Source: Euglena gracilis (lineage: Eukaryota). Taken from it: 64,000 nucleotides of DNA. The notes beneath the pieces were generated by a model. It was not told the DNA's origin. It searched no databases and was given only the letters and a program-made list of their open reading frames with translations. Positions 1-63,484 of this stretch are shown here, in pieces; position 1 is the stretch's first letter, and each line of letters begins with the position of its first letter. The stretch spans positions 3,477,715 through 3,541,714 of the forward strand of contig CP154954.1 in NCBI GenBank assembly GCA_039621445.1, written 5' to 3'. The position numbers were made by a program, and so were the translations under genes.

Positions 1-249
1 AAGGGTATGCCATTTTTAACTTCAACGTTTTGTGTTGTGTGTGCGTGCAAATGCGTCCACAAACAAATTATGTTTGTGCGCATTTGCACGTTTTCGCTCA
101 CAAACACACATCAGTTGCGTGACGGCTGGCAAACACAGTATGTAGTATGAGATGCCATATCACTCCGTGTGTCCTAACGGGCGGCTGCAGTACCCAAGCC
201 AGTTGAGGCACCACGTCAGCACCAGTACCAATTGTCATGACAGCGGGTG

Positions 250-1760
250 TGCTTCTCACCTGTTTGACGTACAAGAGCACCAATCTCTCCCTTGGCACTT
301 TTTGCGTCACTCGGTCAGCAACATGTGTACCAAACCCCCTGGAGTTACAACCCTCTAACACGGGGTTGCAACAGTTCATAAACTGTTTTCCATGTTTCAG
401 GGAGTTAAAGGACACTGATGATTACCACAACTCTACGAGGTTTTGGGACGTAATAGGCGCGTTGGTGCGCGCATTTGCGCGCACAAATGATTTGCAAACA
501 AACAATTTGTTTGCGGCGCAAATGCGCGGGCAAACATTTAATCATTTACTTCAAAATAATGGATTTGTGTGAGCCTTAGCGCACACAAACAATTTGTTTG
601 TGGGCGCAAATGCGCGCACCAACGAATAATAGTTGTGCGATACCATCTCCTCGTCCGTGATGGCTGGCGAACGCAATTCCGCACACCAACCATTGATGAT
701 ACACACCACCAGTGCGTGGTGATGAAATTTGCGGTGAGAGGTAGCGCATGATGTTCACTTGAGCACGGCACCTGGCGTGAGGAAAATTGCCTGCCTTACG
801 TGTGCACGTTCTGCACTGCTGTTCCCCGGCCCGCAGGTCAGGTAGTTTTTGCACCATCGGTTTGGCAGTTAAGCGTATCAAATTGCGCAAACAACCTGCG
901 ACTGTTGGACACTTTTTCTGCAACAGTACTGTGTTGCCAGAATTCAAAATTTGGAACCTGGAATACCCAGGATGCGTCAAACCGGGAATCTGTTTTCCGG
1001 TGTTCGCCATCGTGTCTCCTCATTTCTCCCTTAGAAAACATGCAACGCACCAGCTTTGACACATAACTTGTGGGGGGCAAGTCCCACTGCTTTCATGCAA
1101 CCAATCGAGTGGTAAAGGTTCAACAATTCCTGCAAATAACGGGTGTTTGAGGGCTACGTTTCTCCGGCTGCTGGTTGCCATGAACTGCTGGTTGCCATGA
1201 ACTGGCACCACGTCGTCCCCCAGTCTCACGCCCCAGTTGCGGGGAATAACGTGGCCACTGACAGTGGGTGCTGTTGCTGGGGAGGTGGATGCCGGCTTGG
1301 TGGGCGCTGAGGCATCAGCAGCTGATGTGGCTGCAGCAGCGGAGCCCAAGCCGCGGGCTAGCGGCAAGGCCTTTGGGATCCTGAATTGGTGCCGGCGGAC
1401 GTGCACCGTTATCGGGGGGCTGCGTAACCACCTTCAGGAGATCCTCTCTCAACCATTCCTGGGACCTGTCACTACAGTAGAATTGGCCCCCTAATACCTG
1501 ATGTTGGGGAAGATGGTATGCTCGTTGGGGTTGAACCCTTCAGAAGCCAGTGAAGGTGGTTGTTGCAGGGCCGAGTGGTGTCGCTTCATTGGCAATTCAT
1601 TTGCGCTAAAGCGCGCGTCACTTTGTTCGCTGGCAAATAAGTGCAAATGAACCACTTGTGAAATTTTGGAATTTCTGCAACTGTTTCATTTGCTTTTCGT
1701 GCCCACCAACAGCATGACCCATGACAATAGCATGATGGACACATGAACCACCAGCGATTT
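250..1760 (+). mobile_element. Decayed Ty3/gypsy-like pol relic (RT/RNase H); copy near 44146-45657
   Basis: Ordered degenerate motifs RYHLLVRDGWRTQFRTP..QCVVMKFAV, GLAVKRIK..VGHFF..VLPEFKI..YPGCVK..F, ILSQPFL, SEASEGG; stops and frameshifts; no YxDD seen. Confidence 0.45.
457..626. mobile_element. 170-bp MITE with perfect 21-bp inverted repeat and TAATAG target duplication; copy near 44353-44523, relative at 43843-43996
   Basis: cgttggtgcgcgcatttgcgc at 460-480, its reverse complement at 604-624; taatag at 451-456 and 627-632. Confidence 0.85.
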
Positions 1761-2869
1761 ACCGGCGTTTGACGGTTGTGTATTTTGTCGCATTGAACAT
1801 AATTTTTTTGTGTAGTGTATTTGCGCACACAAGCACAATTTTTGCCTATGGACTGACGCCATTGATAAACAGTATCACAAACCCACCAAATTATATTTCT
1901 CGACGTTCTACTGGTTCGCGCCATCATGGCCTCTTTGTCACACTGTTCATCAACGGTGTCAGTTCATGAGCGCTAAAGCCCAACCCTTGAAGGACAAAAT
2001 ATTGTGTTTATGGGTGCAAATGAACGCACCAACATATTGTGTTACTGCGCCTGTTTGCGCCCATGAACACAATTTTGTTCTTCAAGGGTTGGGCTTCTTC
2101 TTCCGGGTTCTTTGCAACAAAACTGGTTGTGCGGATCCTGGGCATAAGCGGGAGACACCCGTCCCTTTCATCCCCTGTGGACCCTATTTCTTCCCCCCTG
2201 CACATCATTTGCCAAACCCCCTGCACCTACCTTCCTTACCCTACACCCTTCACCCCATCCTACACCCTTCACCCTACACTCACACACTTTGTCACTCTGT
2301 GGCCACACTTTGCAAAATTTGTCAAAAACACCACACCAAGGAGCGCAAGAAAGCAATCCGGCAAACACGCAGGACACACACCGCGTTCAGGTTCACCCGG
2401 GGAAACAGTTGAAAAGAGCAAGAAGGGCAGTAAAGGCCCTGTTCCTTTGCGGCTTTTTTTGCGTCTTTTTCACTCCCAGGGAGGAAGGTTCCGGGGAATC
2501 GACGTGCGGAGCCCATTTCCAGAACCCCAAAACACCATTTTTGACCAAAGTCCCAGTGGTACAACCCCCAAAAAACAGAATTTTGCTCATTTTTTGCATT
2601 CTCTTGTCACCATGTTTTCAAACCCCCCCCACAGCCACACAGCCGAAATAAATATTTTTGTTAATTTGCGCATGTGCGCAAACCAACACCAAAAAAGCTC
2701 AAGTGCGAATCCGGCCGCCTAAGCCTGACCTGGGGGGTCCTGCGGACCTGCGGGGGTCCTGGGGGGTCCTGGGGAAGAAATTAGCCATGTCCCGTTGGGG
2801 GCCCCCCCCCCCCGATGGCGGGAGGCCGTGGTGGGAGACGCCCCCCCCCCCCGGCCCCCGGGCCTGGGC

Positions 2870-2949
2870 GGGGGTTTGTACTGCCGCAGGCCGGTGAGTG
2901 TGAGGGACTCCGGAGGGGCGTCCAGCCCGAGGGAGGGCCGCAGGTGGCC
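2870..2949 (-). CDS. Exon GHLRPSLGLDAPPESLTLTGLRQYKP(P)
   Basis: aag| acceptor; followed by GCC-CAG non-conventional 5' end. Confidence 0.7.
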
Positions 2950-5900
2950 CTTCGGGGGGGACAGCGGGGCGACAGTGGGGCCCCCCAGCCCCCCGAGGAG
3001 TGGCGAGGGGGGCCGGTGGAGGATCGGGAGGGAGGGATGAGCAGGGCTGGACGGAAAAAAACTGGTGGGCCCCCCAGGGGCCAAACCAACCAACCGAAGA
3101 ATGCCTGAAAACCCCCAAGTGAAACGAACTAAATAATGTGAAAGGCCCTCAAAGAAAAGAAATAGTGTGCACGGAAAACAAAAAACCATGAAAAAGCAGA
3201 AAAATCGTGAATGACAAAATCCCACCGCACAAACGGCCCTGCAACCTAGGGCCCGCCCTGTGGTTTGTGCGAGTCCACCACAGAACCCGCCCGCCCACAC
3301 CCTTCCGCGTCGACACGTCCGCAGAGAGAAGCAGAAGGGCGGGCCGGGGGCCCGCCCCCCCCCAGCCAGGCCCAGGCGGGCCCAGGACGGGGGGGGCACA
3401 GCAACCAACATGCCGGAAGACCCGTCTTTAATGGACCCCGTCCAACAAAGGGAAAAGGGCTGGCGGAAAAAGCCCCCCCCCCCCCTAGGGGCCGGGCGAG
3501 CGACCCAGGGTCGAACCGAAAAAAAAAAAAAAAAATACACAAAAATGCCCAAAACAGGGAGGAAAAAAATCCAACCCACGCAGACCGGGCCCCACCCACA
3601 AAGAACCGGAGTAAAGGACCCCGGGACCACTCAACTAAAAAAAAGCCCAGAACCCGAAGGGCAGAAAAAAATAAAATGAAAAATGAAAAGCGCTGACAAA
3701 AAAAAAAAAAACCCAAAAAGGACGGCAAAAAAAAAAATCCACATCCACAGCCAGGAAAAGAAGAGAGCCAACATGTGCGCACACAAAAAAACCCTCACAG
3801 CGGCACCTGCCCCTCTGGGACGTCCCCTCAGCGAAGCTCGACAAACGCCCCGTGGTGAAAAAGGCTGGGGGAAGGCGCCCCCCCCCCCCCCGGGCCTGCG
3901 ACCAAAGGCCGCACGGTGGACCCAGAAACACGCCCACACAGCACCAAAAGATGGGCCGAGCAAAAAAAACCCCCCCCCCCCCCCCCAAAACACCAACCGA
4001 GCAAAAAAACGCAAAATACCACGCTTTTTGAGCAATGTGTATGTGACCAGCCATGAAAATCACAAAAATCATAAAAATCATGAAATCAGCGGTGAAAAAT
4101 CATTGTGAGATTTTTTTGGCCAGAAAAAAATGTGTGGTTTCCCGCCTGGAGCCGACTGGACCGGCCCCCCGCCTCGATGTCCTTGGTGACGTCCGCGAAG
4201 ATGGTTGCGCCTTCAGGCCACACGCCGTTCCGCAGCAGCTGCAGGGCAGAGTGCGGGCCGGCCGGGGGCCAGGCCCTCCCCGCCAGCCAGGCCCCAGGCG
4301 GGGCCGGCCAGGACGATGGGGATCTGCCGGTACAGCAACTGATTGCTGACCCGGGGGCGGGGCGTCTTTTAACGACCCCGGGGTGCCAGCTCAGAGGCTG
4401 GAAAATGTGGGCTGGCGGGAAAAACGGCTGCTGGCTGCCCCCCCCCCCCTAGGGGTCCCGGGCTGGAGCGACCCAGGGTCGAACCGGGTACCAAAAAATC
4501 AAAAATGAAAAAATGTCCAAAAAAACTGCCAATTTGGCTGGAAAAAAATCGATTATTTGACCCAAATTTGCCCTGGCTGGCCTTATTCCATCCCATTTTC
4601 ACCCATTATTGACCCATTTTTGGCCCATTTTTGCACCTCTGAAAGCGATAAATCCGTTACCGCCCAGTCGCCCGAAGGGCGGCTGGAAATAAATAAAACT
4701 CGAGGGGTGGGGAGGGGATCCCGGGCTGAAAAAGGCTGCTGGCTGGAAAAAGGCTGCTGGCTGGCTGGACCCCCCTGGGGGTGGGGTCAAATTCTCTTTA
4801 GCAACGCCCTGCCCTGGGGTGCCCGCAGCCGCGGGCAGCACTTAAGCGGGCACACCAGCCACACAACGTCCCCAGTGATGCGCAATCACACAAATAATAA
4901 CAAACACAGAGCACGCACATAATATCTGCAAACGCTTGACGCTGTGGTGTGCTGTGCTGTGGCTGTGCCGTGCTGTTGTGAGCCGTGGTGTGGTGTGGCG
5001 TGCCACGTTGTGCCGCGGCAGTGTCGTGTGCCGTGCTGTGCTGTGGTGCATTGTGCCGCGTTGTGCTGTGGCTGTCTTTGTGGAGCACGACACGCCACAG
5101 CACGGCGCACCACGGTGCGTGAATGGCCGAGGCACAGCAGGGCATCGCCTCCCCCCCCCCCCAGCCGGGGCGGAGGTCCTTGCGGCATTCCACCAGCTCC
5201 CCAGCGACGCGGTGGTGCCGGCTGCGCACGAGGAACTGCCTCGGGTGTTCCATGTTGTGGGTGCGGCTGTACAGCCGCGCCGCGACGGAGTTGATGTGGA
5301 CCCGCCCCCGGGGCCGCCCGGGGGGTGCGTTCGTGTGCCCGCAGAGCCCTGGCTGAGACGGCGGACAAAACGGCGCGTCAGTTTGAAGCGGGGGGAAAAA
5401 GAAGTGACCCCTGTGGGCTTCCTGCAGGGGGGGGGGGGCAGACCTGAACCACCCCAAACGTTCCACCGGGCTTTGCCTCAGAGTTGGCTGCTGGTTCTGG
5501 GGGGGGGGGCGGTGCACCTCGTCCGTGACACACAACACTTTGTAGCTGACCGCCGAGGGGGGGGGGGCGGATTCGCTGGAGGTCAACGCAGAGTTTGGGG
5601 GGAAGTCAGCCGGGTGGAAGCCCCAAAGAACCCCGACCTGAACAGTGGTGTGGCACAGAAGAAGGGACGCCTGGACGCCTGGTGGACTGAACGTCCCGGC
5701 CAGAAGTCGATGGGGAAGGGTGGGAGCGTGGGAGTGTGCTGGCTCGGGGCAGGGCTGTCTTCCTTGGCACCCCCCACTGCGGCGCTGTTTGATTCTCTCC
5801 CCCCCCACTCTGTCCATGAGATACGTTAGGGCAACCAATGAAGTTAGGGCGTTGGACTCCTCGCACCCGATTGGTTGTTTTGCGTCTTTGCCACTACTTC

Positions 5901-8900
5901 GGTCCAGACACCGCTTCGGCGGCAATGGGGGGGCCCCATGCTGGGGGGAAGGGGATGCACTTTGGCTTCTGGCTGGGTTAAGGCCTGGCGCTGCAGTCCG
6001 CTCTGGCTCTTTCTTCCGAGCAGCTCCGAATAATTGTCTGACCCCGTATCTCCATTTTGCGTTTTCTGCGCCCTCCCCCTCCCCCTCACCGCGTGCAGAA
6101 GAACCGCATGGTGATGTGGAGGGGATTTGGCGGCCACTTTTGGCCAATCCTGGCTGACCCCCCAGGGGGATCCAGGACCAAAAACCAGGCAGTCACTCCG
6201 AGAAAAACCCAGCCGCTCACCCCCAGGGGTGTGGGGTTGGACACACCGAGAGCAATGGTGTGATCGGGACTTTGGCTTCGTGGGTGTTTTGCGCCATCCT
6301 TGCATGTGCGCTGTTCCCCGGTAACCCCCCCAAATAACCTGGCGGGGTCCTTGCTCCTGGCGGGGGCCAAACAACTTGGCGGGGGGAGGGGCAAAAAGGA
6401 TGGTTCCAGTAACTGGGCAAAATTCCTTCAGGGCGTCAAGGGTTAAGGGGCCCAAATAATCTGGCGGGGAGGGGGGCAGGGACAAAAGTTGGTTCCAATA
6501 ACTTGGCACCCCGCCAGGTTATTTAGGGCTGCCCCGCCCTCCCCCGGCTCCGGGAGGGGCCCGGGCCTCCCCGGCCGCTCCTCCGGCAGCAGCGTCTCCA
6601 GCACCGTGTCCTTCAGCGCGGGGCAGAAGCACACCGCGCTGTCCAGGTCGTCCCCGCGGTGCGCCCCGCACCTGTGGGCCGGCGGAGTGCAGGGGGGGGG
6701 GACGTCCCCGACTGCCGCTGTGAGCCCAACCAAGGATTCTTTTCAGACCGGGTCCCTGGCGGGCGGGCGGGGGTCCAGGGGACGTCTTGGGAGGGCGCCC
6801 CCCCCCCACCCACCCACCCACCCAGGGGGCACCCCAGTGATGGGGAGGGGGGTTCCGGGGACCACTTTTGGGGGGTCAATCATGGGGGTCCAAAAAAACT
6901 CAGCGCTGCGGCCCGAAAACTGAGGAAACCCCCCCCCTCCGGGACTAGACGCCAGGCCCGGGTGTAGCTTCCAGACCCCCCTGGCCTCGACGCTAGGCCC
7001 CACTCCGGGGGGGGGGGGGTCCAATGGACCCCCCCACCCCCTCTCCCAGGGTCCAACCTCTGGGCCCAGCCACCCTTTTTTGATTTGATCACAACCGGGG
7101 TGGAAAACCAGCCAGTCGCCCCTTGAACACCGGAGGGGGGGTGTCCCGAGGAGGAGAAAAAAAGGACAAACCCTTCCAGGGAGGGGAAGTGAATTTGATT
7201 GGGTGTGGGCAGCGCTGCGCTTATCAAGCGCACACCCAGAGGCGTACACTGACGCGCGCAAACAGTTGTGTGGCCGAAATGTCCTTTCACATTCACAAAA
7301 AAATACAAAAGCCTCCTCCGGCTTTACATTTGGGTGGGATTTCAAGGCTTGTGGGGGGAGCAAAGTTGTTCTTGAAGGAACGCTATGGACTTTCACTTCA
7401 TTCAACTGAGGTCAATTCGACATCAACTTTCCTACCTGCATCTGTCAATTCTTCCCTGAGTTGTGCCACGTGCAAAACCGATGTGATTTTTCGCAGACAA
7501 AAGTTCATCATTGATTCATGAAAAACAATCCTTGCGGTCCTTGGAACGCATTTATTTGGGGAGCAGGGGCTTTCTGCACACGTTTCAAAGCCAGTACGGA
7601 ATGGGGCGGCTTTGTGTTTGGGTCTTCCAATTCGGGGGGGGGGGGGCAGGCAACGTGGCACACTGTGCCCACCCACCGCAACACACACCTGTGTGGGCAG
7701 AGGGTGATGAGGCCCAGCGCCTCCAGTTCGTTCAAGTTGCCGGTGGTGTGGATGGGGTCAAGGTCGAGCAGCCCGGCGGTCACCTCCATCACGGTGGGGA
7801 GGAAGGCCGAGATGCCCGGCTGCGCCGTGATGGATGGGCGCGCCGGGCCACTTGGGGCCAGCGTGGGGAGGGAGGGGGAGTGGAAGCCCAAGCACCCGGG
7901 TCAGGCTGCGGTCCTCTGTGGCCTCTGAGCTGAACCCGTCCACGGAGGGGGGGGGGGTCGCTAAGCCACGCCTTGAATACCCCCTAAAACGCGTGGCATT
8001 GAACTTGAGGATTTTTTTGTGTGTTTCCGTTGGAAATGGGGAAGGGAGGCCACAACGAAGAGATTGGTGCAGAGTCTGTAAGTGTGTATTTATCCACCAG
8101 TGCCCAACTATCCTGATTTCTGGACCTCCCTAACAGGGTAAAAAGCAGGTGAGCAGTGATGAGGGCTAGGTATTGGGCGTGCATCAAGAAAGGGCAGGTG
8201 GGTGTCACTGCTGGCAGATCACCTGTTTTTGATTGGGGCCTCTTTGGCTTGATGCAACCTTTTTCCTACACAGTTGAGACTTGGCATTTCAAATCCTCCT
8301 TGACTCCACTTTTCCACTTAAAATGCAAAGAAATTTGGCACAAATGGAAAATGGAGTCTGAATACTGAACCTCTTCAAACTGGCCGCTAACCAAACGAGT
8401 ACATTTATTTCGCCTTTTGCACAGTTTTCTTGTGTTTTAAGTTCATGCTGTCCCCTCCGCCACGGGATGCGTGGGCATTCATAAGTGGGCCTGACCCAAA
8501 AATTTCAAGCTGCCCCTCCCCTCAGCTCATTGGCTCTGGCATGTAATTCCAACGGCCAGGGGGGGGGGGTGAATACGTGGGAGGGGTGGGCAGGATTGGT
8601 CTTCGCCTAATTACTGTCTCCTTTCACTTGGGCGTGGTGGTGTTGTGTGGTGTTGGTTCGTGGTGTTGTCCCCATCTGGGCCTGGCCCTGGTCGAACCGG
8701 GTACCAAAAAAGATAAAATAACAAAAAGGTCATGAACAGCCAATCACACAAAAAAAAGACCACCGACCCAAGAATTGAACTGCAGTTTCGACCCATCTTC
8801 GACCCATTTTTGAACCCGCTTGCATCCATCCCCTGCCGATCCCCCCGCCCCCCCCCCCTGGTTGTGGGGCCAGACACGGGTGCAAGTGGCGGGATGGTTG

Positions 8901-11900
8901 CAATCACCTTCAGCATCCGCTGCTGCAGGAAGGGCAGCAGGTCGAACAGGTGGAACATCTTGAGCGTCAGGGCCTGGTGAGACCCCGGGGGGCGACGCTC
9001 GGGAGGGGTTGGCAGTAGAAGCGGGGGGGGGGGGGGGCTGGTACAGGTTGATACCATGCTGAAAACTGGAAACCTTGCGGGGGGTCTGAGAGCGTTTTGA
9101 AGTGGCAGTGCCGGGAGGCATTGCCACTCCGGTGGGCAGCCTGGTTGACACCTCAGACCCCGTCCGAGTTGGTGGGTCAACAAAAAGACCACAGGTCGTG
9201 GTTCTGGGGGGTGGGGCTGTGTTCTTCACACAATCCATCTCTCACCAAGGTTATATTGTTTGGTGGCCATGCATTTACACACGTCTTATTGCGCAGGTTG
9301 TTTTTGACGAGCCCCATTCTTCTCCACCGGTTTCTGACAGACTCACACCAAAAAAAGGCCCATTCCCGCGAGAGAAGCAGACTCTGTCAACTGCAGGGAA
9401 TTCCAAGCTCCACGCCACTTGGCAACGGCATTCCAAACGGAGCGTGTGGGACGTCTCCGAAGCGCATGGCTTCTGATGAGACGGGCAGGCAAGACAGCGG
9501 GCCGGGCCAGCACGTGGCGGGGGTGCTGGGGGGGCACAGGGTCCGACCGGGGCACGATGGGGCAGAGGGCCGTCCAGCTGCGGTCCGCCAACGCGGCCAG
9601 CGCCGCCGCCGGGCGGTCCGCGGTGTCCGCGTCCGCCCACCCGCCGCGCAGGAACTGGCCCGCCGCCGCCGCCACGCTCTGTAGGTGTCCCGCCCAGGGC
9701 ACCTCTGCTCGGGGGGCGGGCTGCTACCAACGGCGTCGGGGGGGGGGCACCCATCATTGGGGGACGCAAAGGGAGAGAGGCTGTGCTGTGATGTGCTGTG
9801 CTGTGTGCTGTGCTGTGCTGTGCTGTGCTGTGCTGTGCTGTGCTGTGCTGTGCTGTGCTGTGCTGTGCTGTGTGTGCTGTGCTGTGCTGTGCTGTGCTGT
9901 GCTGTGCTGTGCTGTGCTGTGCTGTGCTGTGCTGTGCTGTGCTGTGCTGTGCTGTGCTGTGCTGTGCTGTGCTGTGCTGTGCTGCGCTGCGCTGTGCTGT
10001 ATGCTGTGCTGTGTGCTGAGCTGTGCTGTGCTCCTGTTGCGGGACTCAGTTTCCCGGCTCCCAAGGCCTTCAGCGCAGCACAGTGCAGCAGAGCACAGCC
10101 CAACTCAATGCACACAGTCACAGTGATGGAGTTCAAGGGGCTTCCCTGGCCCCGCCGTCCGCGCCATCACAGTCTCCACCAAAGCGGCCTCCGGGCGGCC
10201 CCCAAGTAGTGCTGCGGGGGCGGGCCGGGGGGAGGGGGCGCCGATCCCCTTTCTGTCCTCTGCCGACAGAAGGGATGACTTTCCGGCGATCGCCGCCGTT
10301 TGCGGGGCTCACTTTGACCTGGACTCTGCGTCTGTGGGGGTCCCGCTTCCATTGGGGCCCAGCCCAAAAACCACACAAATTCGGCCAAAACCCACCAAAG
10401 TTTTTCGGCCAACCCAGCTGGACGGGTTCGCTATTGTTTTGTGTGCCAGACCCACCGCCCGGGGGGGGGGGGGGGCAGCCAGGCCCCCCCCACAAAGGTC
10501 AAAATTTCCCTTCCACTTTGGCCTAATTATTTTTTGCATTTTGATAAATAACAAAAAATATTTCTCGGGCGGCCCAACTCGCACTTAAGGTCTTGATTTT
10601 TGTATTGCACTTCAGCGCAATGCTGAAGCCTTTTTCAAACCCAGCGGTGAAACCCACCCTTTTGAGAGGCTGCCTGGCATACCCATAGGCACTTAACCCG
10701 GTTCTGCCCCGGGGGTGGGGGGGGTCAAAAGCGAGTGAGTGGGGTTTGGGGCCGTTGGACACCGCGCTGCACCTCAACCACCAAGGGAAACACACACTTT
10801 CTGCACAAGTTGGCCACCTCAGGAGCCGAGAGACAGACGGTGTGCCCAGTTCTTTAGGGCACCTTGCCCATGTAGGTGGGGGCTGAAGGGCCCCAGCGCG
10901 CCGGATGATCTGACAGTTCAGCCCCTCCCACCCCCCCCACAATCAGTAAAGGGTGCATTACAGGAGATACAGGCTGGGGTCCTACTGGAATGGCCGCACT
11001 TAACGGAGAGAGGTCCGCCATCAGAGCACCGGTGCTCTGGCTGGAGGGGAACGCTGAATGGCAAAACTTGCCAAACCACGAGCATGTTGCAATTTGCTTC
11101 GTTGCAACAGGAACACACCTCCCACCCCCCTGGGGGTCAAAACCCACCTCGAAAACCTGCCCACCCCCTGGGGTCGGGTCACGCTTGGGTGAAGTGTCTC
11201 TATGGTACAGACAACTCAGGAAGAACAGAGGGGAAAGACCGGTCCCTGCGAGGACAGCGGGTACAAAGGGGAGAGGACAGTTTCCGGGGGGGGGGGGTAT
11301 ACTGGCAAACACCCTCCCCCAAATACAACCCCGATTGTCCGAATTTCGCAACAGAACATTCTCGTTGGAACGTTAGAAGGGAAAAGTGTGGTCTCGACTG
11401 CCACAATTACATCCAAAAGCCATCCAGCAGGGGATGTGGTCAGCTGGTCACACGCATCCATCGTCAGTCGGGTTGTCCGCCGTGCGCCAACCCAAAAAAA
11501 TGACCATTCTTCCAATTTTTTATCTGGTTTTTTTTTGGCGTTTTGCGCCATTCCCCAACACGCTTTCGCTTGCTGACGCCAAGGAACATTTCTTTCAACC
11601 TGGTGGAATGAACCCCCCCCACCCCAGCCCGGGCAGCAGCTCGGTGACCTGGGCCTTGTCCAGCGTGGGGAGCTCCAACAGTTGGTGCCAGGGAGGCCCA
11701 CCCGTTCGGAACAAACTGGGCGGGGGGTCAGGTCGTGCGGCCACCACAGGGCCAAGGGCAGTGAGGTCAAGCCAGGGGTGTGCTCACTGCACAGAGCGCA
11801 GCGGTATACACACATACGCATATAATTACAGATGCACATATACATATATACATACATATAGAGAGAGTATACATATATTTGTATATATACACACACATAT

Positions 11901-14900
11901 ACATATGCCCATGTATACATATATGTACATACAAATACATATATATACATATATACATATACGTATATGTACATACATATATATGCATGCATATACATAC
12001 ATTTTCATATACACATATTTTTGTATATATGCATATTATATTTATGTATTGTACATATTACATATATTATATATGCAGTGGTAGTGGTTACAGTCTTGCC
12101 CGCCAAGGAGTCGAGTGGGGGTAAAAAAGGCTGGGAGGATGGTCTGCCGATAGCAAGGTCGGCAGGCTTGACTTCGGAAGAGTTTGGAAGAAGGATTCGA
12201 TGTTGGGCACCCCAATCACCGCCGAAAAGGTTTAAAGTGACCCTCGCGCATCCGCCCCCGGCAAGGTTCTTTCCCATGGATGCATTCCGCGCTTCTGCCA
12301 ACAACACTCGCAGCAAAGGTGCCTGTGCCGGACGTCCGTTCGCATTGATCCTTTTTTGGCATCTTGGCAGTTTGTCAAGGTTCAGAAAAAGTTTTGCCGT
12401 TCGCCCACCTCGCCTGCCCAAGACCTTTATTCTTAATAGTGTGTGTTGCCTGACCCCCCACCGTTGGAGTGGCCCTTGGATGCTGATGGGGGGGGGGCGG
12501 GTACGGACACAATTTTGCAACGGATTTTTCTCCATCGGCGATGTCGGTGGGCAGGGCCGCATGGACCCCTTCGGATGGGGCACCTCAACGCGCTACCAGA
12601 ACGTCTCAGAACCTTTTCCCCATGTCATGAACCATGGATGAACAGAGTGAGGCACGGGGAGCTGTGGGGGGGGCGGCCCTGCACGCGCGCCGTAGATCTG
12701 GGCGGTGAGGGCGGGCGGCGTGAGGGCGCCGGAGGCGTGGTAGTGGGTGAGGCACTGCACGTACCGCCCCCGGACCCCGGCCGGCAGCTCCGTGCCAGGC
12801 CCCCTCTCCCGAAGGCCCCCAGCCCCGCGCACCGGCGGGGGCCTCATCGTCCAAAACCTCCAAACGGTTGGCACTTTGGTGATGCGGTCGTGGACTGCTG
12901 GGGGTGTTGGCGGGTATCCCTCCCCGGGCGCCCGACCCCCCTCCTCCGCACATGAAACTTTGCCACATAAGGTTGGCCCCCCAGGCTTACCCTCAAACAT
13001 GGCCCAGGCCAGGGGGGGGGGATGCTGGCAGGTATGGCCGGGGTGTGTTCGAAAACACGGCAAGCCCGCATCCAGAATAGATGGCCGAATAAATGGGTGG
13101 CTGGGATTGTAAGGCCATGGCAGGGATTGTTGGGATTTGTCACCGGAGGTTTGTTGGCCAGGCTGCCATTGGAGGGTGGGGGAAGAGTTCCCAGGAGGTC
13201 TGGGTTTGTGGACGCCTCAAGGGGTACTCTCCCCCGGCAGCACCCGACCGTCAGCTGAGACATGCCAACCCGGCTGGACTTCTGGATTTTTTTTGGGCAC
13301 CAGCCTGGGTCCAGCTGCCAGCTGGCTTGGATCCCCCCCCCCCCCGCTGGACCTCCACCCACAGGGGGGTGGGGACGGGGGGTCCGCAGCCCCTCTGAGC
13401 TGATGGCTGGAAGAAAAAAAAGGTGCTAAAAGCGAAGGCCAGAGGGCAACGACCTCCCCCCATGTGTCTAAAACAGGAGCGGGAGGGGGAGCCAGGGCGC
13501 AGCGGGCCATCTCGGCCAGGAAGCGCAAGGACATGTCGTCCAGGAACTGCACGTGGCGCACCAGCAGGGCCAGCCGGAGTCCCCCCTCCAATGCCCGCTT
13601 CACCAGCTCCACGCCCTCCCGGAACACCGTGAGCACCTGTGGGGGGGGGGGGGGTGGAGCGGCTGTGAAAAACTACTTTTTAGCATTTTCAAGCCACCCC
13701 CGGGGGCCCCTTCAATGCTACCAGCACAGCATAGCCAGGGGGTTGGGTGAGCACGACATCCCGCAGGGGGGTCGCTGAGCTCTTATCCCTTTATGGGTAA
13801 GAGCGAAACTCACCCCTGGGGAAAAGGGGGGTTGACCCCCCACCCTCCTCCCCCCCTGGGTCGGGGTCACCTCGGGAACCGGCAGATTATCATCATGATC
13901 CCAACGCCGTTGCCGGAATTTTTTTTTCAGTCGCGAGCGACTGCATTTCTAGTTTCCGAATCACCTCCGTTTGACCCCAAACTCCCAGCCAGGCCCGGGT
14001 TATTCACGGGCGAAGGGGTCCAAACTGGGTAGGATTGGCCCACCCCCCTTCCGACTCTGCCATTTTGCCTGGGTCCAAAAATCGGTCAAAAAATCGATTT
14101 TTGAAAATGTCTCGAGAAAATGTTCATTATCTTCGGAAATGTCGGTCTGACAAAATGTGCCCCTGGAGGCCCTATCACCCCCCGTTCGCCGTTTTGGCTG
14201 CCGACACGACACGCCTGGCCCGTGTTTTGGCGCACCTTCGCGGGTGTTTTTGGGGCCTTTTTGCTCAAAATAAATTTGTTTTCCAAAATATCTCGACAAT
14301 GAAGCAAAATCAAAGGAAAAGTCCAGAGAGCAAAAATGAAGCCCTTGGAATGCCCTATCCAACCATGGTTTACTTCTCCCCCTCTTCATGTAGCCCAAGC
14401 AGGCAAGGATAGTCATCCCCAGTTTTAGGTCTCCAGTGAGGTCCGGTGGGACCCGGTGGGATCCGGTGGGATCTGTTGGGATCCGGTGGGATCCGGTAGG
14501 GTTCTGCTGGGTTGCCTTGGGGGGGGGGGGACCAGGAAAAAAATCATGCAACAAGGTGGTTTAGACCGGATATTCCTTATGCATCATGCAGCGAGTGGAC
14601 AGCATAACCACACGCATGCCCCCCCATGGAGTCAGGGTCTTGGCCTCTTTTTTTTTTGTCCCACACGAGTCACCTTTTGGCTCTGTTTAGTTGCACATCC
14701 CTCTTTGCAGCATCAGACTTTGGGGGTGGTTCGAGACATGGGGGTGGGGGACACAGAGGGGGGGGCGGGGTGGATGCGGGTGTGGGAGGGGGAACTATGG
14801 CTCAACTGTCCACATAAACCTTCAATTTTCCTCAGACCGACCAAGAAATGTGCCCGGCCAAGCACCTGATCTCCACAGGTTCTCCTTCTGTATTTATGGC

Positions 14901-16749
14901 CCCAAATCTCCCCACCATACAATTTTTTACCGACCCCGGGGGGGGGGGTCACTCCACTTTTCAAAAAACCAGTCAGTCACTTTTTTGGTGAAGCCAGTCA
15001 GTCGCTACCCCCGGGGGATCACTTAGTCACTGTCCCACCCTCCCCCCCCCCCCCGGGGTGACTGGGGTTTTCAGAGTGACTGACTGTTTTTTTGGCCCGG
15101 CCCCCCTCCCCTCCCCCCGGGGGGGGGGGGGTCGGCAAAAAACCACAAAAGTGACCCGGCGCCGCCGAAGGCGCCGGAAATTTTTTCTGGCCTTTTTTTT
15201 TCATGTTTTGGGTCAAATTTCCTTTGGATTCCAGAGTGGCCGACCCCCCCTCCCCATTGTATGCTCCCCATGTCCTCCCCGCATCCCGGATATTTTGGAC
15301 CCTCCCCCCCCCCAGGTGAAGATCACCGTTTGGAACTTCACCGGGGGGTCCCGGACCCCCTCCCCCCCTAACCCAACAGTGAACTTCGACAGTGAAAAAA
15401 TCTCCGGTGGGATCCGGTGCGGTCCGGTGGAATCCGGTGGGATCCGGTGGCTGTCCTTGCCTGAGCCCGAGTTATGCCCATTTTTCAGTCAACTTTGGCC
15501 TGTTTCAGGGGCCACTTTGGGCCGCTTTTGGGGTCAAAAAAAAACCGATGTTTCCCAAATATCTCGGAAATGGAGCAAAATCAAAGGAAATGTCCGGAGA
15601 CCTAATTTTAAGCCCTTGGAATGCCCTATCTAATGGTACTTTGATTTCCCCGCAACTCCCCGCCAAGCCTGAAATATGGCCAATTTACGGCCCAAAACAG
15701 CGCGGCAGGCTTGCGACTTGGCCGTTTTCGGCAGTTTTTTGGGGGTCAAAAAATCAATTTTTATAAATTTATCAAAAATGGTGGGGAATCAAAGGAAATG
15801 TCCGGAGACCTAAATTGAAGCCCTTAAAATGCCCGATCTAACACTATTTTGATTTCCCTGTAACTCCCCGCCTAGCCCGAGTTACGGCCATTTTTCCGGC
15901 CAATTTTGGCCATTTTGTACAGTATTGGCTTGTTTTGACTAGTCGGTTTCGGAAATTGTTGGTCGAAAAGTCGGGGAAAAAACCGAAAAAAAAAATTGCC
16001 CAAACCGATGTTTTCTGGCCTCCAGGCCAGAAAAACTGTTTTTGACCCGAAAACGAGCGTTTTTTTTGACCCGCCAGTGCCCCGTTTTTGGCCCTAAACC
16101 CATGGAGTTTGAATCAGAAACAGGTCAAAAAATTCGAAGAAAAAAATAACAAAACGGGTAGGGGTGTATGGGGGGTTGCCATTTCAGAAATTACTGTAAA
16201 ATTACTGAATATTACCGTAAATTGCAAGTGTTTAATATGTAAATTATAAATTGCGCGAAATTTGCAATGCTAGTCCTTTCCGCCTCCCATTACGTGCAGG
16301 TCCCATTAAGAGCTCAGCACTGTTCAAAACACGGTTGGACCACAGGCCCTCCAAAAACACCACACAAAAAAAGGCAAATAAACAAAAATGGAAGCTAGCA
16401 TTGTTTGTGTTGTTTGTGTTGCTTGTGTTGTGTTTTGTGTGGTGTTTGTGTGTTGTGTATGTGTTCTGTGTGTGTGTTGTGTGTGTTGTGTGTGTTGTGC
16501 ATGTTGCGCGTGTTGCGCATGTTGCGCGTGTCGTGTGTGTTGCGCATGTTGTGTGTGTTGTGCTTGCTGTGCGTGTTGTGCTGTGTGCTGCACGTGTTGT
16601 GTGTGTGTTGGGTGTTATGTGTGTGTTGTGTGTGTGTGCGCGTTGTGAGTGTTGTGTGTGTTGTGTTGTGTGTGTGTGTGTGTGTGTGTGTTATGTTGTG
16701 TGTGTTGTGTTGTGTGTGTGTTGTGTGTCCGTTGGGTGTTGGGTGTGCG

Positions 16750-16782
<33 letters not shown>

Positions 16783-17026
16783 GTGTGTGTGTGTGTTGGG
16801 TGTAGTGTTGTGTGTTGTGTGTGTTGCGTGTGTTGTGTTGTTTGTGTTGTGTGTGTGTTATGTTGTGTGTGTATGTTTTGTGTGCATGTCTGTTGTGTGT
16901 GTTGTGTGTGTCTTATGTTGTGTGTGTTGTGTTTTGTGTGTTGTGAGTGTTGTACATGTTGTGCGTGTGTTGTGTGTGTGTTGCGCGTGTTGTTTGTGTG
17001 TTGTGTTTTGGTGTTTGTGTGTGTGG

Positions 17027-17062
<36 letters not shown>

Positions 17063-20000
17063 GTGTGTGTTGTTTGTGTGTGTTGTTCGTGTTGTGTGTG
17101 TTGCGTGTTGTGTGTGTGTGTGTTGTGTGTGTGAGTTTGTTGTGTGTGTTGTGCTGTGTGTTGCATGCTGCGTACTGTGTGCTGCGTGTTGTCTGTGTTG
17201 TGAGTGTGTGGGTGGGTGGGTGGGTGGGTGGGTGGGTGGGTGGGTGCGTGCATGCATGCGTGCGTGCATGCGTGCGTGTGTTCATGCGTGTGTCTGTGTG
17301 TGTGTTGGTGGTGGCGTTCCACCTTATTTGCATTGCAATGTGAAGAAATTTATTTTGTTTTAAAAAAATCACAGGGAGACGTGGAAAAGGCGAAGTAAAC
17401 GACAAAAAAGGTATGGCAAAAAAACCACTTATAGTTTGTTCCAGATCCTGACAGTAGCGAGGAAAATGATTCACTCATATCCCGCAGTGTCTTAAACCTC
17501 CACCGAGGCAGCATCACCTACTCTCAAGCAACCCTGGGACAGGGAGGTGGTGGTTAACGAGGTGGGGGTCAATCACAACCCGTCAACCATCCACAGGACC
17601 GCGGGATTCCTGTTCAGCCCTGGACGGGAAGGCTGAACCCCCAGCTTCAGTAACAGGGGGGGGGACGAAAGGCCTGGTGGTTGGGGGGGAGGGGCACCCG
17701 CCACCCATGGGGATTCCTGAACAGCCCTGGGGGGGGGGGGGGGACCGCCACACCTGCTGCTGCTCCAAGGCGTCCAACACCTGCTGCGGCAGGTCCCCGA
17801 GCGTCTGTGGCTGCGTCCGGGCCAGGGGGCGGCGCCGCCCCGGCCACATGTGCAGCTGTGACACCGTCTGCCCCTTTGCCAAGCCACGACCGAAAAGGGA
17901 CAAATATTCTGCCATTCGGCGCCTGGTCCACCCCCCACGGCGTCCGACAGAGATTGGAAAACCCCGGCCTCGGAGCAACGGTGGAGGTGCGGGAGGGGAT
18001 GGGTCACCCCCTGGAGAGGCCCCACGTGGCGAGGGTCCAGACCGTTGGGGCCGGGATGCCTCTCGAGGCAGACACAGACGTAGGGGGGGGGTCAAACCCA
18101 CCCTGCCAGATGCGAATCAACGGAATGTGTTTGTGTCAGAAGGGGTTGGAGAGTGTGCACAAGGATGGCGGGAAGCGTTGACACACACACACACACACAC
18201 ACACACAAAACCAAAACCTGGAAAATATTCACGGGTGTACAGAGTTGAGGCAGGAGAAACTTCAGTGCAAAAAAGGGCTGGCCACCCAGCAACAGACTCG
18301 TAGGTGACAAAAGCTGCGGTCTGGTCTGAGCATGGGGTGTTCAGTGAACGAGGGTGTTCGGTTGGACACGGGGAGCGGGCGTAAGAACGAACTGGCCCCT
18401 CGATCTTACGCCTCTTTAAGGACTCCAGGGGGTTGCTGGGCTAGAAATTTGGGCTGGCTGGAAATTTGGGCTGGCTGCCCCCCCCCCCCACGGGGGCTAG
18501 ACCCCGGCTGGAACTGATCTGGGCCAGGCAGGGCCGAAATCGGACTATTGCTTACCTACAGAGCACAGTTTTGAAAAAATGCCCATCTGAACAACCCCCC
18601 TAAAAACTCCAAAACACTGCAAAAACGCCATTTTTGGCCTTTCTTGAACACTTTTTTCAAAAAAATTTGGGCTGGGCCCTCCAAAAACAGGCTGGCTAGA
18701 TTGGCTAGCAGAACCCCCCCAGGGGTGCTGTTTCGGCTGGGCTGGGCCAAAATTGGGGCTGGCCGCCGTAGCCCCCCCGGGGTCTGCAAAACCTTAAAAA
18801 GATGTGTGCCCTCGATGGCCCCCCGAACGCCAGCCAGGGTTCCATCAGCTGGGCCACGTGCTCCACCACATGGAAGTCGCGGTCGCGCAGGACCCGCAGG
18901 CGGGTCGAGGGAGAATGCTGTTGGGGCAGGCTGTGTGCTCAGGAGAGGGTGGGGAGAACCGCTTCCCCGCAAAATGCACAAACCAATCCACCCGGATAGA
19001 AACATACTTCCTTATCCTTGATCACAGTGTTTCCCTTTTCCATTTTCCTCAAGAATTGCACACGACTGATAGTGTGAATCAAAAGCGTGTGGTGCAGCGC
19101 TGACTCCGGCTCGCAAAATTTGAAGCAGCAAAGTATATTATTTGGCTTCGTCTCTTTTGGTACGCCCAGAAAAAGAATGCAGACATCTAATAGTGCACCA
19201 AACCCATCCAACCCACACGCGCACGCGCACACATGCTCACACACACCCACCCAATAAGGTGTCATTCAGCACATTACATGCATGGTGCATGCATTGCAAA
19301 ATGAAATAAGACTGAGAAAAGCTACACAACTCATGCTGTGTCATGCTATGTCATCCACATGCACTCAGGTGGTCGCTGGTCCTTCCTCCAAACCAGATGC
19401 CTCCCTCTGCAGAACCAGCGTTTGCCTGACCCCCGGGGCCCCGTGATCAGGAAAGTTGTGCGCTGCCAGGACCCTCACGAAACAGCAGAAAGTGTGTGTT
19501 GCAAAGTGTGCTGCAACCTCCACAATATCTGGCTGAACAAAACCTTTGTCCTCCCACACCGCTTGGCCCTCCAGCAGTGTACAAAGGCAGAGGGCGCCGT
19601 AAACACCAATTGCGGCACGCACCATCGCCCAGCTTTTCAATCCAAACAAAGGAAAGGTTTTTTTTTAAGAACGGGGAGGGGGAGGAGGGGGTCGGCACCC
19701 ACCCATCCACACCCTGGGATGGGGCCCCCCAGAGGGGTCCTGGGGGACCTACCCACTTTTGCCCGAAAAATGGCCAAAAATGCTAAAAATAGCCTTTTCA
19801 GCGCCGAAAAAGATATAACCACCAGCCCCTACCCCGACCTCCCCCCCGGGGGGGAGGGTGTCCAAGGGACTCACCAACCCTGCCCCCCCCCCGGGGGGGA
19901 GGGGGTTCCAAGAGAGCGGATTGGCACAGGCTGACAGGAGCCCCCACCCTTGGGACCATGTGGCACATCCACCAACCAGACAATGCCCGCAGTGCGGCCT

Positions 20001-23000
20001 ACCCCGGGGGGGGTCCGACCCCCGCTTTTTTCCCTTTGCGCTTTGCTCTTGCCCGTAAACCTCTCCAAATAACACCCTCCCTTGGTGTGTTATTTGGGCA
20101 CCCGAACTGGGGCCCCAGAGGGGGTGTTATTTGGGGGGGGTGTTATTTTTACATGGAAAACCAAAGGGAAACTGGGGGGTGTATTATTTGGGGGGGTTAT
20201 TGGGGGTGTTATTTGGGAGGGGGTTATTTGGGGGGGTTACAGGGATAGGAGCTCCGCAACCCTCCGGATCTGTGCCATGGCTGGGTGGGCCTTCGCAGCC
20301 TGGCCCCCGGTCGAGGAGGGGGTCCATGCGCTGCAGGAGGGCGCGGTGGAGGAGGGGGCCGGCGGGGGCCGCCGCGGCGGGGGCCGGTGGGTAGGCGGCG
20401 GGGACGAAGCCTGGCACGGGTTCCGACGTCCCCTTCAGGGAGAGGCGCTGGGGGAGCTCCTACGGGCCGTGGCAGGAGCTCGGACGAGCATGCCTCCGGG
20501 CAGGCGGCAAACAATCCGGCGCAACAGAACAAGAACAAACGGACACATATGGAGAACGCAGAGTGGCGCACTGTATGCATGTTCGGTGCAATTTGTCCCA
20601 CCCCGGGTTGCGTGAAACATTGCAGACTGACGCCTTGGTTCATCAAAGTTATGCGTGTGGTTTGTGCTTGCCAGGCATCCGATGTGTGTTGTGCTTGCTG
20701 TGCTGTGTTGTGATGTGCTGTGGTGCTGTGCTGTGTTGTGTGCTGTGCTGTGTGCTGTGCTGTGCTGTGCTGTGCTGTGCTGTGCTGTGCTGTGCTGTGC
20801 TGTGCTGTGCTGTGCTGTGCTGTGCTGTGGTGTGCTGTGCTGTGCTGTGCTGTGCTGTGTGCTGTGCTGTGCTGTGCTGTGCTGTGCTGTGCTGTCTTGG
20901 TGCAGGGGTGCATTGCGCCGAACTGTGCAGTGTGCTGTGCTGTGCTCTGTGAACACATGTGCACAGGTGCACATTAGACGGCTGGAAATGCACTTTTCTT
21001 TGGGAGTCACAAAATTCTGGCAGTTTGAGTGAAAATGCGCATCCGCGCATTCTGGAAATGGAGTGCGCACGTGCGCATTCCGAATGGTTTTGTGCCTCTT
21101 CCAGACTGGGTGTAAACACCACAAAATTGAGCTGTTAGGATTCAACACGACCAGAGGGACCACCCCTTACATACTGGTTCAACTATGTATCGTGCTGTTT
21201 ACAGCTGTTTCACAACGACTGTGGCACAGTGCGTGGCTGGACACACACTCGGCACACTCCACACGACAGGCGGAAATCGGACAACGCAGGAAAACCTGGA
21301 CTGGGCGTGCCACCTTGTGTTCATCGATGTGTGCTGATGGCTTCTGGGGGCAGGGCCTGGTGAGCCCGGGATGAGCATGGGAAGGAACTCCTTGCAGTCA
21401 TAGAGACACAGCCCTCCCAAGGTCGAAACGATAGGTGTCACTGAGTGTCAAGGCCGAAGAACGCGTACCTGCGCATTTTTGGAATGGACACAGGCTGTGA
21501 GAAGGGGGAATGCGCACACATGCATTGACGTTGAAGGACGGACTGGGTATGGCCTGTTGTTTGCCTGCCTTGAATCCGAGTTGTGCACCGCCATGATGTG
21601 GTTTTGGGCTTGCAGAGCACGGGTGTGTGGGGGGGGGGAGATGAACCAAAAGAATCACCCTTGTCACCAATGTCGCTGTACCGACCACACCCTGAAACAC
21701 GACACTTGCAGCGGCGTGGAAAACCCTGGGCTCGGCGACTGCAGGTGTCAAGGCACAAATTCATGTCCTTCGGTGACAACTGCCCCCCTGCAGCTCAATT
21801 CGTCGAACAAATCAGAATGCGCACCTGCGCATTCCACTTCACCCACTGCAGTCCAGTGCCCAGCCCAGCCTACGCTGCTCTCGTGAACATGTGGAGCACG
21901 TCACAGTGCATCTGCAGCCGTACCCCACCCGGCGGAGGTGATGGGCCGGTTGCTGCCAGCGTTGTCCGACCCCACGCCCCAGAGCAGGCTTTTTTTTTTA
22001 CCAACCCAGTTGTGTCCGAGGACGAGGCAGCCCTGGAGCGAAACATGGCAGAGGAGGACCACCTGTGGCCAAGTTGGCAACAAACGCCACCCACCACACA
22101 GAACCCTTATTTATCATGTAGTCAGAGTGGACGCTCCAGCACTGAAAACAACACCACCCCTGGCTGCTGTGAAGACCAAAGTAAACACGTGTGCAGACAC
22201 TTTCTCCATGCACACCCATTCCGCAATAGACAATCAAATATGGCACATTGGGGTGAATGCGCACATGCACATTCCCTTCTTGTGCACAGGGTCATGCCAA
22301 ACAACTCACCACACAAGGTGGACGCACAGCCCAGGAGACGTACACCCTACCCTGGAGGCATCCACCTGTGCAATGATATGCCTCTGAAATCGCTAATAAA
22401 AAGGCCAGCAGTGCACCAGGGGGTTGCCCTGCCACAATGCTGTTCAGGAGTGCGAGACACTGCTTCCCACAACACAGAGAATGCGCACCTGCGCACTCCC
22501 CCTGACAGAATGTGCACGCGCGCACTCTTGTGGATGCCCAGCGCTGCTCCCCTCCTGCTCTCCTGCAGATAAAACCACAGTCAGCCAGCGAAGGAATGGC
22601 CTCAAGAGTGCGCATGCATTCTTGTGCCTCATGCAACCTCGGAGAGGAGCCATTTTATATTGTTTGTGAGGGCTGTTCTGGAGGGTGTAGTCTGTGGCAG
22701 AAAGGGTTGAAGCAGGGCTTCGCTCCGTAGCTTTAAAAACCAGTGATGCACAGGAAAGGCGTGCAAGCCAGCCCCCCCCCCTCCAGACCCAGCACCCCAT
22801 CCCAAACGTCACTAAACACAGGTGGTCCAACATGGTGACGTGCCGTGGTGCCTATGAGAAGGCACGTGCGGAGCGGAGGTCGTGCACCATTGGAGGGATG
22901 CCATGCTGCGTGTGTCGCGGAGGGGTGCTGTGCACAGTATGGAATGCAAACAGCAGGCTCCCTGTGGCAGGGCACCAAGTCCTCCCCTGCAGACACCTGG

Positions 23001-26000: not shown

Positions 26001-27947
26001 TGTGCCGGATTGTTTTTTTGCACAGGGGGAGGGGTGTCTGCCCCACCCCCCTTTGGGGGATGATGGGTCCAGACTCCCCCTCGATACCCTGCTTTTGTGG
26101 TACACGACATTGATCTTCTGTTGAATTGAAACCATAACAAGGGAGACACGAACTTCTGAGTTTCTATCATGCTTGGCTCTTTCCCTGGGGCGCAGCAGTG
26201 GGTGACCATGTTGTGTGGGAAGTGAATTATCATTGGGGAGCTTTCTCAAAGACCACAGGTCCGGTCAGCTGGGGGAAAAATGTACTTGGTGGAAAAATGG
26301 TTCTTGGTCCCCTATCCCCCCCATGCCCAATAACTGGTCTCTGTGACCTTCAACACAAATTACAGATGGGGGGGCATTGTGGGTTCTGACCAAAAAGGTG
26401 TCCTCCGACCTTTAATGGCAGCATCAAACAAGTGGGCCCCCCGGGGGGGGGGGGGGGGCAATGCAAGGCGATGGATATTTTGTTCGCATTTGTTTGGTGT
26501 TTTCTGTTATTTTTGGGAATGAAGTTAGGGTTACAGATGTCGTCAAGGAAGGGATCAGGGCCAGGCCAAAATTAAGAGGTTCGGCCGAAATTGGGCCTAA
26601 ATTGGGCCTAAATTTCGCCAGATTTCAGCGAGAATTAGATTCAGTGAGATTCGCCAGATTCAGTGAGAATTACCAAAAATTAAGTCTAAAATGTGGCAAG
26701 AATTTCCTAAGGCAATTTCGTAATTTCAACCGTCCTCAAATAGACGGTTCCCCGCATCGCATACACCACCAAAGCCTTGAACCAACACAATTGATCCCGT
26801 TTCAACAACAAATAGAGCGCTGGATGGCTCCTCAGCGGGTCCCATGCAATTCTGGAATGGATGGATTGGGGCGGGGGGCACATTGCCAAAAGCAGGGTTC
26901 TTTTTTTTAAGACCGGGGGAGGGGATCCCCTCACCCACCCACCCCCTGGGATGGGAAGTGTGCTGCCCGCCACCCCCCCCCAGGGCAGAACGGGAAGACC
27001 TGGTGGGGGGGATGGTCGACCCCCCACCCACCACAACATTTTTCCACCTGGCGCCGAAGGCGCTGGGAAACAATTTTTGGAACGAAAATTGGTGCTCCCG
27101 GAAATACGGGAGGAGGCAGGGGGGGGGGGGCCCGAGGGGGTCCCGGGGACCCACTTTCCTTCCCCCGAAAATGGCAGAAAATCGCGAAAATTGCAATAAA
27201 AACAACCACTTTTTCAAAAAAAGTTTGGTGCCTTCAGCGCCGAAAAGTATGACCCACTCCCCCCTGGGCAGACCCCCCTGGGGGACCCCCCCCCCGGGAG
27301 GCTCGGCCGGACCCCCCTCCCCCCCTGGGGTCCACGACGAAAAAAACCCCTGGCCAAAAGTGCCTGGGCACTGCCAGTGCACTCTGGTGCAAATGAAGTC
27401 ATTGGAGGCCAAGTAAAGGCTCACTTTGGGCCGATGTCGGCCCTTGGAGGCCCGACGCCACATCTGCCCTGGCACTCCACGGCACTCCGAGACCTCCGAA
27501 TCGGAGGTTGATCAGAGTCAGCCTGGCGACCAGGCTTCTTTTACCAAGGGGGGGGGGGGGGCTTGTGCTATGGGGTGCCTGCCCATGTCCAGCACCCCCT
27601 TCCCGGGGGGGGAGGACATTTCAAAAAGAAGCCTGCGGGCGACTACTAGGCCTAAGGGTTCTTTGGTTTCTGTCTCCCACAAAAAACACCCTTTGACGTC
27701 ACATAAGAGATACATCCTGCTGTTGTAGCTGGTGCCTCATTTGCATGGGACTTTTATGGGCATTCAGTGGTTGGTTGAAAGACAAGGGTGCACTTTCTAG
27801 CAAAACCACGCAGAACCTCTGAAAAGGTGTCCTCCGACTCCGACTGGGGGGTGGGCTCGTTAGCCATAGGGGGCTCGTTGGACATAGGGGGGTGCCCTGT
27901 CCACCGATCACCCTGGTTGCGAAAATTGTGACGTCAGTATTGGTTTG

Positions 27948-28793: not shown

Positions 28794-28806
28794 NNNNNNN
28801 NNNNNN
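28794..28806. other. Assembly gap (13 N)
   Basis: N run. Confidence 1.

Positions 28807-32652: not shown

Positions 32653-63484
<30,832 letters not shown>

Follow-up and report, generated by a model that had tools for sequence, protein, structure and literature searches.

Several papers contain passages that put forward, as a hypothesis, that euglenid non-conventional introns arose from MITEs (PMC3935182, PMC12501133, PMC11282704, PMC12621601), and a short inverted-repeat element in the genome of Euglena gracilis raises the question of whether a transposon insertion could by itself give rise to such an intron. The element lies near the start of a 64,000-nt stretch of contig CP154954.1, which was analyzed at its full length and is referred to here as the window. 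An earlier note had read it as a MITE with the geometry of a frame-preserving non-conventional intron. In letter order, positions 451-632 consist of TAATAG, GCG, a 21-nt arm, a 123-nt interior, a second arm exactly reverse-complementary to the first, AA and again TAATAG, which gives the following parts:

451-456: TAATAG, left flanking direct repeat, a possible target-site duplication (read from the sequence)
457-459: GCG, between the left TAATAG and the left arm (read from the sequence)
457-626: element body of 170 bp, two or three near-palindromic modules around the core GCGCAAATGCGC (repeat finder)
460-494: left inverted-repeat arm, perfect over 460-480 (repeat finder)
590-624: right inverted-repeat arm, perfect over 604-624 (repeat finder)
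625-626: AA, between the right arm and the right TAATAG (read from the sequence)
627-632: TAATAG, right flanking direct repeat (read from the sequence)

The inverted repeat is far beyond chance. As the earlier note had described it, a 170-bp element with a perfect 21-bp inverted repeat (460-480/604-624) is found both in the letters themselves and by the repeat finder; the arms agree at 21/21 over their first 21 nt and at 89% when extended to 35 nt (460-494/590-624). RNA from the minus strand of the element is predicted to fold with -82.8 kcal/mol (z = -7.30), a value equaled by 0 of 200 shuffles, and in the predicted fold the arms form the closing stem of 21 + 6 bp. Near-palindromic modules occupy 474-534 and 564-622 of the interior; here the repeat finder reported the inverted pairs 474-502/506-534 and 564-592/594-622, and the element also repeats itself directly, with 494-542 resembling 581-630. 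The 12-nt core GCGCAAATGCGC occurs three times within the element. When at most 1 mismatch was allowed, we counted 13 occurrences in the window against 0.33 expected, a number reached in 0 of 100 shuffles, and 10 of the 13 fall in the element and a neighboring relative, summed over the two copies of a segmental duplication described below. The arm core TGCGCGCA reads the same on both strands. The 170-bp element has no coding capacity, since the open frames overlapping it, 207-569 on the plus strand and 579-1019 on the minus strand, look non-coding, and a comparison with Rfam gave 0 matches over the whole window.

The flanking repeat TAATAG does not abut the arms, from which it is offset by 3 nt on the left and by 2 nt on the right. 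When the two 15-nt flanks were shuffled, 2.4% of the trials gave a shared word of at least 6 nt; for pairs of window positions the figure was 5.5%. Because of this chance of 2-6% and because it is set off from the arms, TAATAG is weak evidence for a target-site duplication. The 6-bp duplication claimed at the outset is thus present as a 6/6 repeat on both sides, but its interpretation as a target-site duplication is only weakly supported at a chance level of 2.4-5.5%. A target duplication of 6 bp is unusual among the well-known DNA-transposon superfamilies.

A second full-length place of the element had been cited at 44351-44524, and its meaning depends on the large-scale structure of the locus. 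By self-comparison, the window covers ~1.46 units of a segmental duplication arranged in tandem, whose period is ~43.9 kb: positions 1-3159 align with 43897-47062 at 99.18% identity, and 4023-20978 with 47062-64000 at 97.37%. The alignment begins at window base 1, and the duplication continues past both window ends. A sensitive search of the window found two full-length places of the element, both in the duplicated block, the second being:

44347-44529: element in the second duplicate, arms 44356-44390/44487-44521, 98.06% identity over 205 nt, 1 nt longer

This place corresponds to that of the first element in the other duplicate, and it is therefore the same insertion, passively copied: there is one insertion predating the duplication, not two insertions. 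The sequence cited in the earlier note is present, but it does not count as an independent copy, as it is the same insertion within a duplicated block that is 99.2% identical. A comparison of filled and empty sites between the duplicates revealed no armed insertion; the length differences were simple-sequence differences of 9-13 nt and one block of 863 bp. This block (3160-4022) is found in the first duplicate only and has neither arms nor a flanking duplication. Simple-sequence arrays of GCTGT type and CA type lie at 9780-10100, 16400-17310, 37630-37820 and 42321-42485 and in their duplicates, and the long arrays of both types cross-match each other over much of the window. An assembly gap of 13 N is located at 28794-28806.

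Diverged relatives of the element were found close to it:

43843-43986: diverged relative, whole in the second duplicate; its 138-nt part 43849-43986 has 49-nt arms at 82%
35-90: right half of this relative (hairpin module) in the first duplicate, where the left half precedes the window start
663-692: degenerate arm-like remnant, 67% identity to the left arm

The relative at 43843-43986 begins at 43843 with GGTTGG, which is similar to the left end of the element, and shows no TAATAG flanks and no CCAACG right end. Querying the window with the element also returned weak pieces at 1793-1844 and 1995-2076. None of these relatives is more than about 750 bp to 2 kb away from the element and all are diverged, at about 65-80%, which fits a family with members of differing age and local palindrome growth equally well. 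In the 64-kb window, which holds 44 kb of unique DNA, there was no independent full copy besides this insertion. A metagenome scan with a 20-nt arm gave 8 loci, each of which matched one arm only over 20-26 nt; these are chance matches, located in DNA of 57-66% G+C and without likeness beyond the one arm. Another foldback of 121 bp is present at 1976-2096 (45873-45993 in the second duplicate), with arms of 30 nt at 90%, of which 17 are perfect. It has no flanking duplication (1/8), and its sequence is unrelated to that of the 170-bp element.

Judged on its letters and repeat structure, the element is probably a MITE- or foldback-type insertion. Mobility is suggested because inverted arms and a flanking repeat occur together; the counterpoints are the single independent copy in the window, the 2-6% chance of TAATAG and the location of all relatives nearby. 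In this working model, a small non-autonomous inverted-repeat element built from near-palindromic modules would have entered non-coding DNA in a single event, between genes or far inside an intron, and the tandem duplication of the ~44-kb block would later have copied it passively. Its hairpin would join both element ends in any transcript crossing it. The main rival, which we consider unlikely although it explains several of the same observations, does without a transposon: palindromic modules would have multiplied on the spot by duplication and inversion, through palindrome amplification or replication slippage at hairpins, and TAATAG would have arisen by chance. Such growth would account for the confinement of related sequence, within 44 kb of unique DNA, to ~750 bp to 2 kb, for an element that is internally repetitive with a self-complementary arm core, and for a flanking repeat that is weakly significant and set off from the arms. 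However, the outer arms agreeing at 21/21, the abrupt loss of pairing outside them and the 6-nt direct repeat are marks of an insertion, and the neighbors, at ~65-80%, are far more diverged than one arm is from the other, which fits separate events of different ages.

In 1-44200, 233 open frames have at least 100 aa; the 150 longest of them gave no Pfam match at the curated cut-off and 6 sub-threshold matches, although a search of long open frames of this kind would miss short exons. The open frame at 579-1019 on the minus strand, which overlaps the element, had no Pfam match. GC3 is 0.50-0.54 in open frames that span the hypothetical splice junction. An exon-like stretch on the minus strand near the second copy (42489-42614, 42 aa) has a GC3 of 0.86; for these 42 aa we found no homologs among longer proteins and no Pfam match. 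Removal of the candidate elements in silico did not cause any coding-like frame to appear. Because no coding signal was detected around it, the element apparently lies in non-coding DNA, whether between genes or well inside an intron. The second copy had been placed inside a larger non-conventional intron, as a possible twintron. This candidate host intron, read from 46772 to 42619, starts with GCC-CAG and ends with CTG-GGGTC, with the right offsets but only 4 consecutive pairs; the base that follows is T with a 5-nt spacer and G with a 6-nt spacer. Elsewhere in the window, an exon-like frame at ~13220-13650 on the minus strand, which has no Pfam match, is preceded near 13650 by a C-rich tract and CAG. 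These are likely a conventional acceptor, in agreement with what is reported for E. gracilis in a passage of PMC11170887.

We then compared the element with the published rules for non-conventional introns. In the descriptive model of Milanowski et al. 2014, positions +4/+5 pair with -7/-6, mostly as CA/TG; the upstream exon ends in a pyrimidine, +1 is a purine and -1 a pyrimidine, and the downstream exon starts with a purine and has C as its third base (PMC3935182). The functional code of Nomura et al. 2025 was defined genetically and reads 5'-N3-CDG...CH'G-N5-6|purine (PMC12501133). According to the passages describing these experiments, the test intron needed a 5' spacer of precisely 3 nt as well as base pairing behind the motif, and every single substitution in CAG or CTG of EaNC-INT1 impaired paramylon formation, an effect interpreted by the authors as a loss of splicing (PMC12501133). 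Of the E. agilis non-conventional introns, 61.2% fit the code and 38.8% do not (PMC12501133). In the main text of the same paper we found no report of a compensatory change of the third pair, and CGT-ACG is absent from the motif classes counted in its Datasets S7 and S8.

The excision proposed for the element is the following:

455-627: minus strand, hypothetical 173-nt excision register, ATT-CGT...ACG-CGCCT|A

The minus strand from 627 to 455 indeed reads ATT-CGTTGG...CCAACG-CGCCT and then A, and the arithmetic of the proposal is correct: the body and one TAATAG add 176 nt, the register removes 173, and a remainder of 3 is left. That this works in either orientation is true only of the count, as the plus-strand junctions (457-629) are G|G and A|T and not pyrimidine|purine. 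On the plus strand, the base after a 5-nt spacer is T; a 6-nt spacer gives A and removes 174 nt. The geometry had also been called exact, which is true of the minus-strand spacing (3 nt, 5 nt, purine) but not of the trinucleotides, where CGT/ACG takes the place of CDG/CH'G.

Measured against the descriptive model, the minus strand shows 5 of the 6 features, the third base of the downstream exon being T and not C, and its pair of +4/+5 with -7/-6 is CG/CG rather than CA/TG. With respect to the functional code, the 3-nt spacer is in place at the 5' end, whereas +4 to +6 is CGT instead of CDG on both strands; at the 3' end, -8 to -6 is ACG instead of CH'G, and the minus strand has the 5-nt spacer and the purine A. 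Pairing behind the trinucleotides comprises 21 perfect pairs, and the third pair is T-A in the element compared with G-C in the published code. The 21-nt arm, as read from the sequence, contains no CNG. A scan of 301-800 on both strands found no full-code register within the element and one weak code pair spanning it (358-687, 6/8 pairs). Of the four junction bases, two belong to the target sequence rather than to the element and would differ from insertion to insertion. Over the whole window, the full-code scan produced 142 raw matches compared with 17-32 in 10 shuffles, and most of those on the plus strand form one tandem array at 9.5-10.1 kb; the scan serves as a hairpin locator only and is not evidence that the genome uses the code.

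The published Euglena code demands C-D-G/C-H'-G trinucleotides, which the ends of the element do not have, and efficient non-conventional excision of the element therefore seems unlikely, although excision may still occur, given that 38.8% of the E. agilis introns described in PMC12501133 lie outside the code. We regard the element as very improbably an introner, that is, a MITE whose arm offset and duplication length would make every insertion into an exon removable as a frame-preserving non-conventional intron. Several observations speak for the idea: on the minus strand, 5 of 6 descriptive features are present (PMC3935182), the 3-nt and 5-nt spacers match those of PMC12501133, as does the long stem, the frame is kept by 176 - 173 = 3, and an origin of non-conventional introns from MITEs is a standing hypothesis in passages of PMC3935182, PMC12501133 and PMC11282704. 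Yet none of the tests made here supported the idea, and there is one defined mismatch, CGT/ACG in the place of CDG/CH'G in the code; in addition, 2 of 4 junction bases are target-derived, the geometry fits the minus strand alone, the one independent copy in the window is not in an evident exon, and the diverged relative at 43843-43986 has other ends. Moreover, the combination of a C...G hairpin, a pyrimidine|purine at a fixed offset and a remainder divisible by 3 would, by rough estimate, arise by coincidence in a few per cent of cases, and its choice was post hoc.

A survey of 1-44000 for perfect inverted pairs with arms of at least 9 nt located 20-3000 nt apart, from which low-complexity arms were excluded, yielded 618 pairs. 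Among the 54 pairs with CAG...CTG ends, the abutting 8-nt flanks agreed at 7/8 in three and at 6/8 in one; the corresponding numbers for the 564 other pairs were 1 and 13. Flanks agreeing at 7/8 are thus in excess in CAG-ended pairs (3/54 vs 1/564; Fisher's test, p = 0.0024), for which 0.02 such cases among the 54 are expected by composition. This excess therefore points to insertions with 8-bp target duplications and arms starting with CAGG:

14400-15463: CAGG...CCTG element, abutting 8-nt repeats 7/8
27531-27635: CAGG...CCTG element, abutting 8-nt repeats 7/8
28873-29187: CAGG...CCTG element, abutting 8-nt repeats 7/8
25749-26091: CAGG...CCTG element, less certain, abutting 8-nt repeats 6/8

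With 8-bp duplications abutting their arms, these three or four elements resemble hAT-type MITEs as characterized in PMC3517528. Merlin elements of E. gracilis have 8-bp duplications too, but their arms end in GG (PMC8101967). In plus orientation, the sixth base of the duplication is a purine in 4/4 of the CAGG elements and the fifth a pyrimidine in 3/4. None of the four lies in an evident coding frame, so they are only candidate introns. The published spacers add up to 3 + 5 = 8, and excision according to them would remove the element together with one copy of the duplication, restoring the pre-insertion sequence. Both splice junctions would then fall between the fifth and the sixth base of the duplication, that is, at one position seen twice, which would explain why pyrimidine|purine is preferred at both ends. 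We tentatively raise the possibility that the introner idea is right in kind and was attached to the wrong element, and that non-conventional splicing is the exact reversal, at the RNA level, of a hAT-like insertion. The link of 3 + 5 = 8 between spacers and duplication was not found in the literature covered by our search, which was not exhaustive, and the passages on the MITE-origin hypothesis name no source transposon family for non-conventional introns.

A further motif, CAGGTGCGCATTC, was noted in the window. Allowing at most 2 mismatches, it occurs 9 times on both strands within the 2.3 kb of 20964-23228, with a tenth match in the duplicate at 63986, compared with ~2 matches expected in the whole window. 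Three exact copies on the minus strand are spaced by 664 and 737 nt. CAGGTGCGCATTC could mark either a repeated unit or a CAGG-ended family.

The 170-bp element could itself be a degenerate member of the class with 8-bp duplications, its true duplication being the 8 nt that abut the arms and not TAATAG; we think this quite improbable. The two octamers (452-459 and 625-632) agree at 5/8, with both junction positions included, and 173 equals 165 + 8, so that removal of 3 + 165 + 5 = 173 nt from the RNA would restore the target exactly. However, an agreement of 5/8 is expected by composition alone in 2.9%, three consecutive mismatches beside perfect arms would be odd for a young insertion, and the arms start with CGTTG and not with CAG. 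The reading as 8 abutting nt and the reading as TAATAG depend on the same few letters.

If the reversal model is true, CAGG...CCTG-like elements would be the long-sought source of euglenid non-conventional introns. Any transposon family whose geometry matched would render the MITE-origin hypothesis, which has been proposed since 2014, testable. The 170-bp element alone is no such family, being a single insertion that lies in no evident exon and lacks the required trinucleotides; its value is that of a pointer to CAGG-ended elements that match the published code numerically.

Compared with known systems, the element shares with euglenid non-conventional introns a terminal stem that joins the ends, a spacer of 3 nt before and of 5 nt after this stem, minus-strand junctions that are both pyrimidine|purine, and direct repeats at the junctions. 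It differs from them in having CGT/ACG where they have CAG/CTG, CGG/CCG, CGG/CTG or CTG/CAG, in lying outside a recognizable exon and being known here from DNA sequence alone, and in its stem of 21-35 bp, which is far longer than the stems described as required in PMC3935182 and PMC12501133. Like MITEs and foldbacks, the element is small (170 bp) and non-coding, with terminal or subterminal inverted repeats, a flanking direct repeat and a strong hairpin potential; unlike MITEs, its flanking repeat is set off from the arms and no autonomous partner was identified. The arms of hAT elements start with CAG or TAG by consensus. In hAT-type MITEs such as Mar of Drosophila, short arms starting with CAGG are abutted by 8-bp target duplications (PMC3517528), a configuration from which the 170-bp element departs with arms starting CGTTGG and abutting octamers that agree at 5/8.

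Finally, the introners of Micromonas and Aureococcus provide the closest conceptual parallel. In these algae, a DNA transposon and its target duplication reportedly yield a precisely spliced sequence, as Huff, Zilberman and Roy are said to have described in 2016; the resulting introns are reportedly spliceosomal GT-AG introns, with near-identical copies numbering hundreds to thousands within genes. In contrast, the E. gracilis element has one independent copy in the window, outside evident exons, and the pathway in question is non-spliceosomal. The concept is the same in both cases, namely an insertion that, together with its target duplication, would be removable by a splicing machinery.
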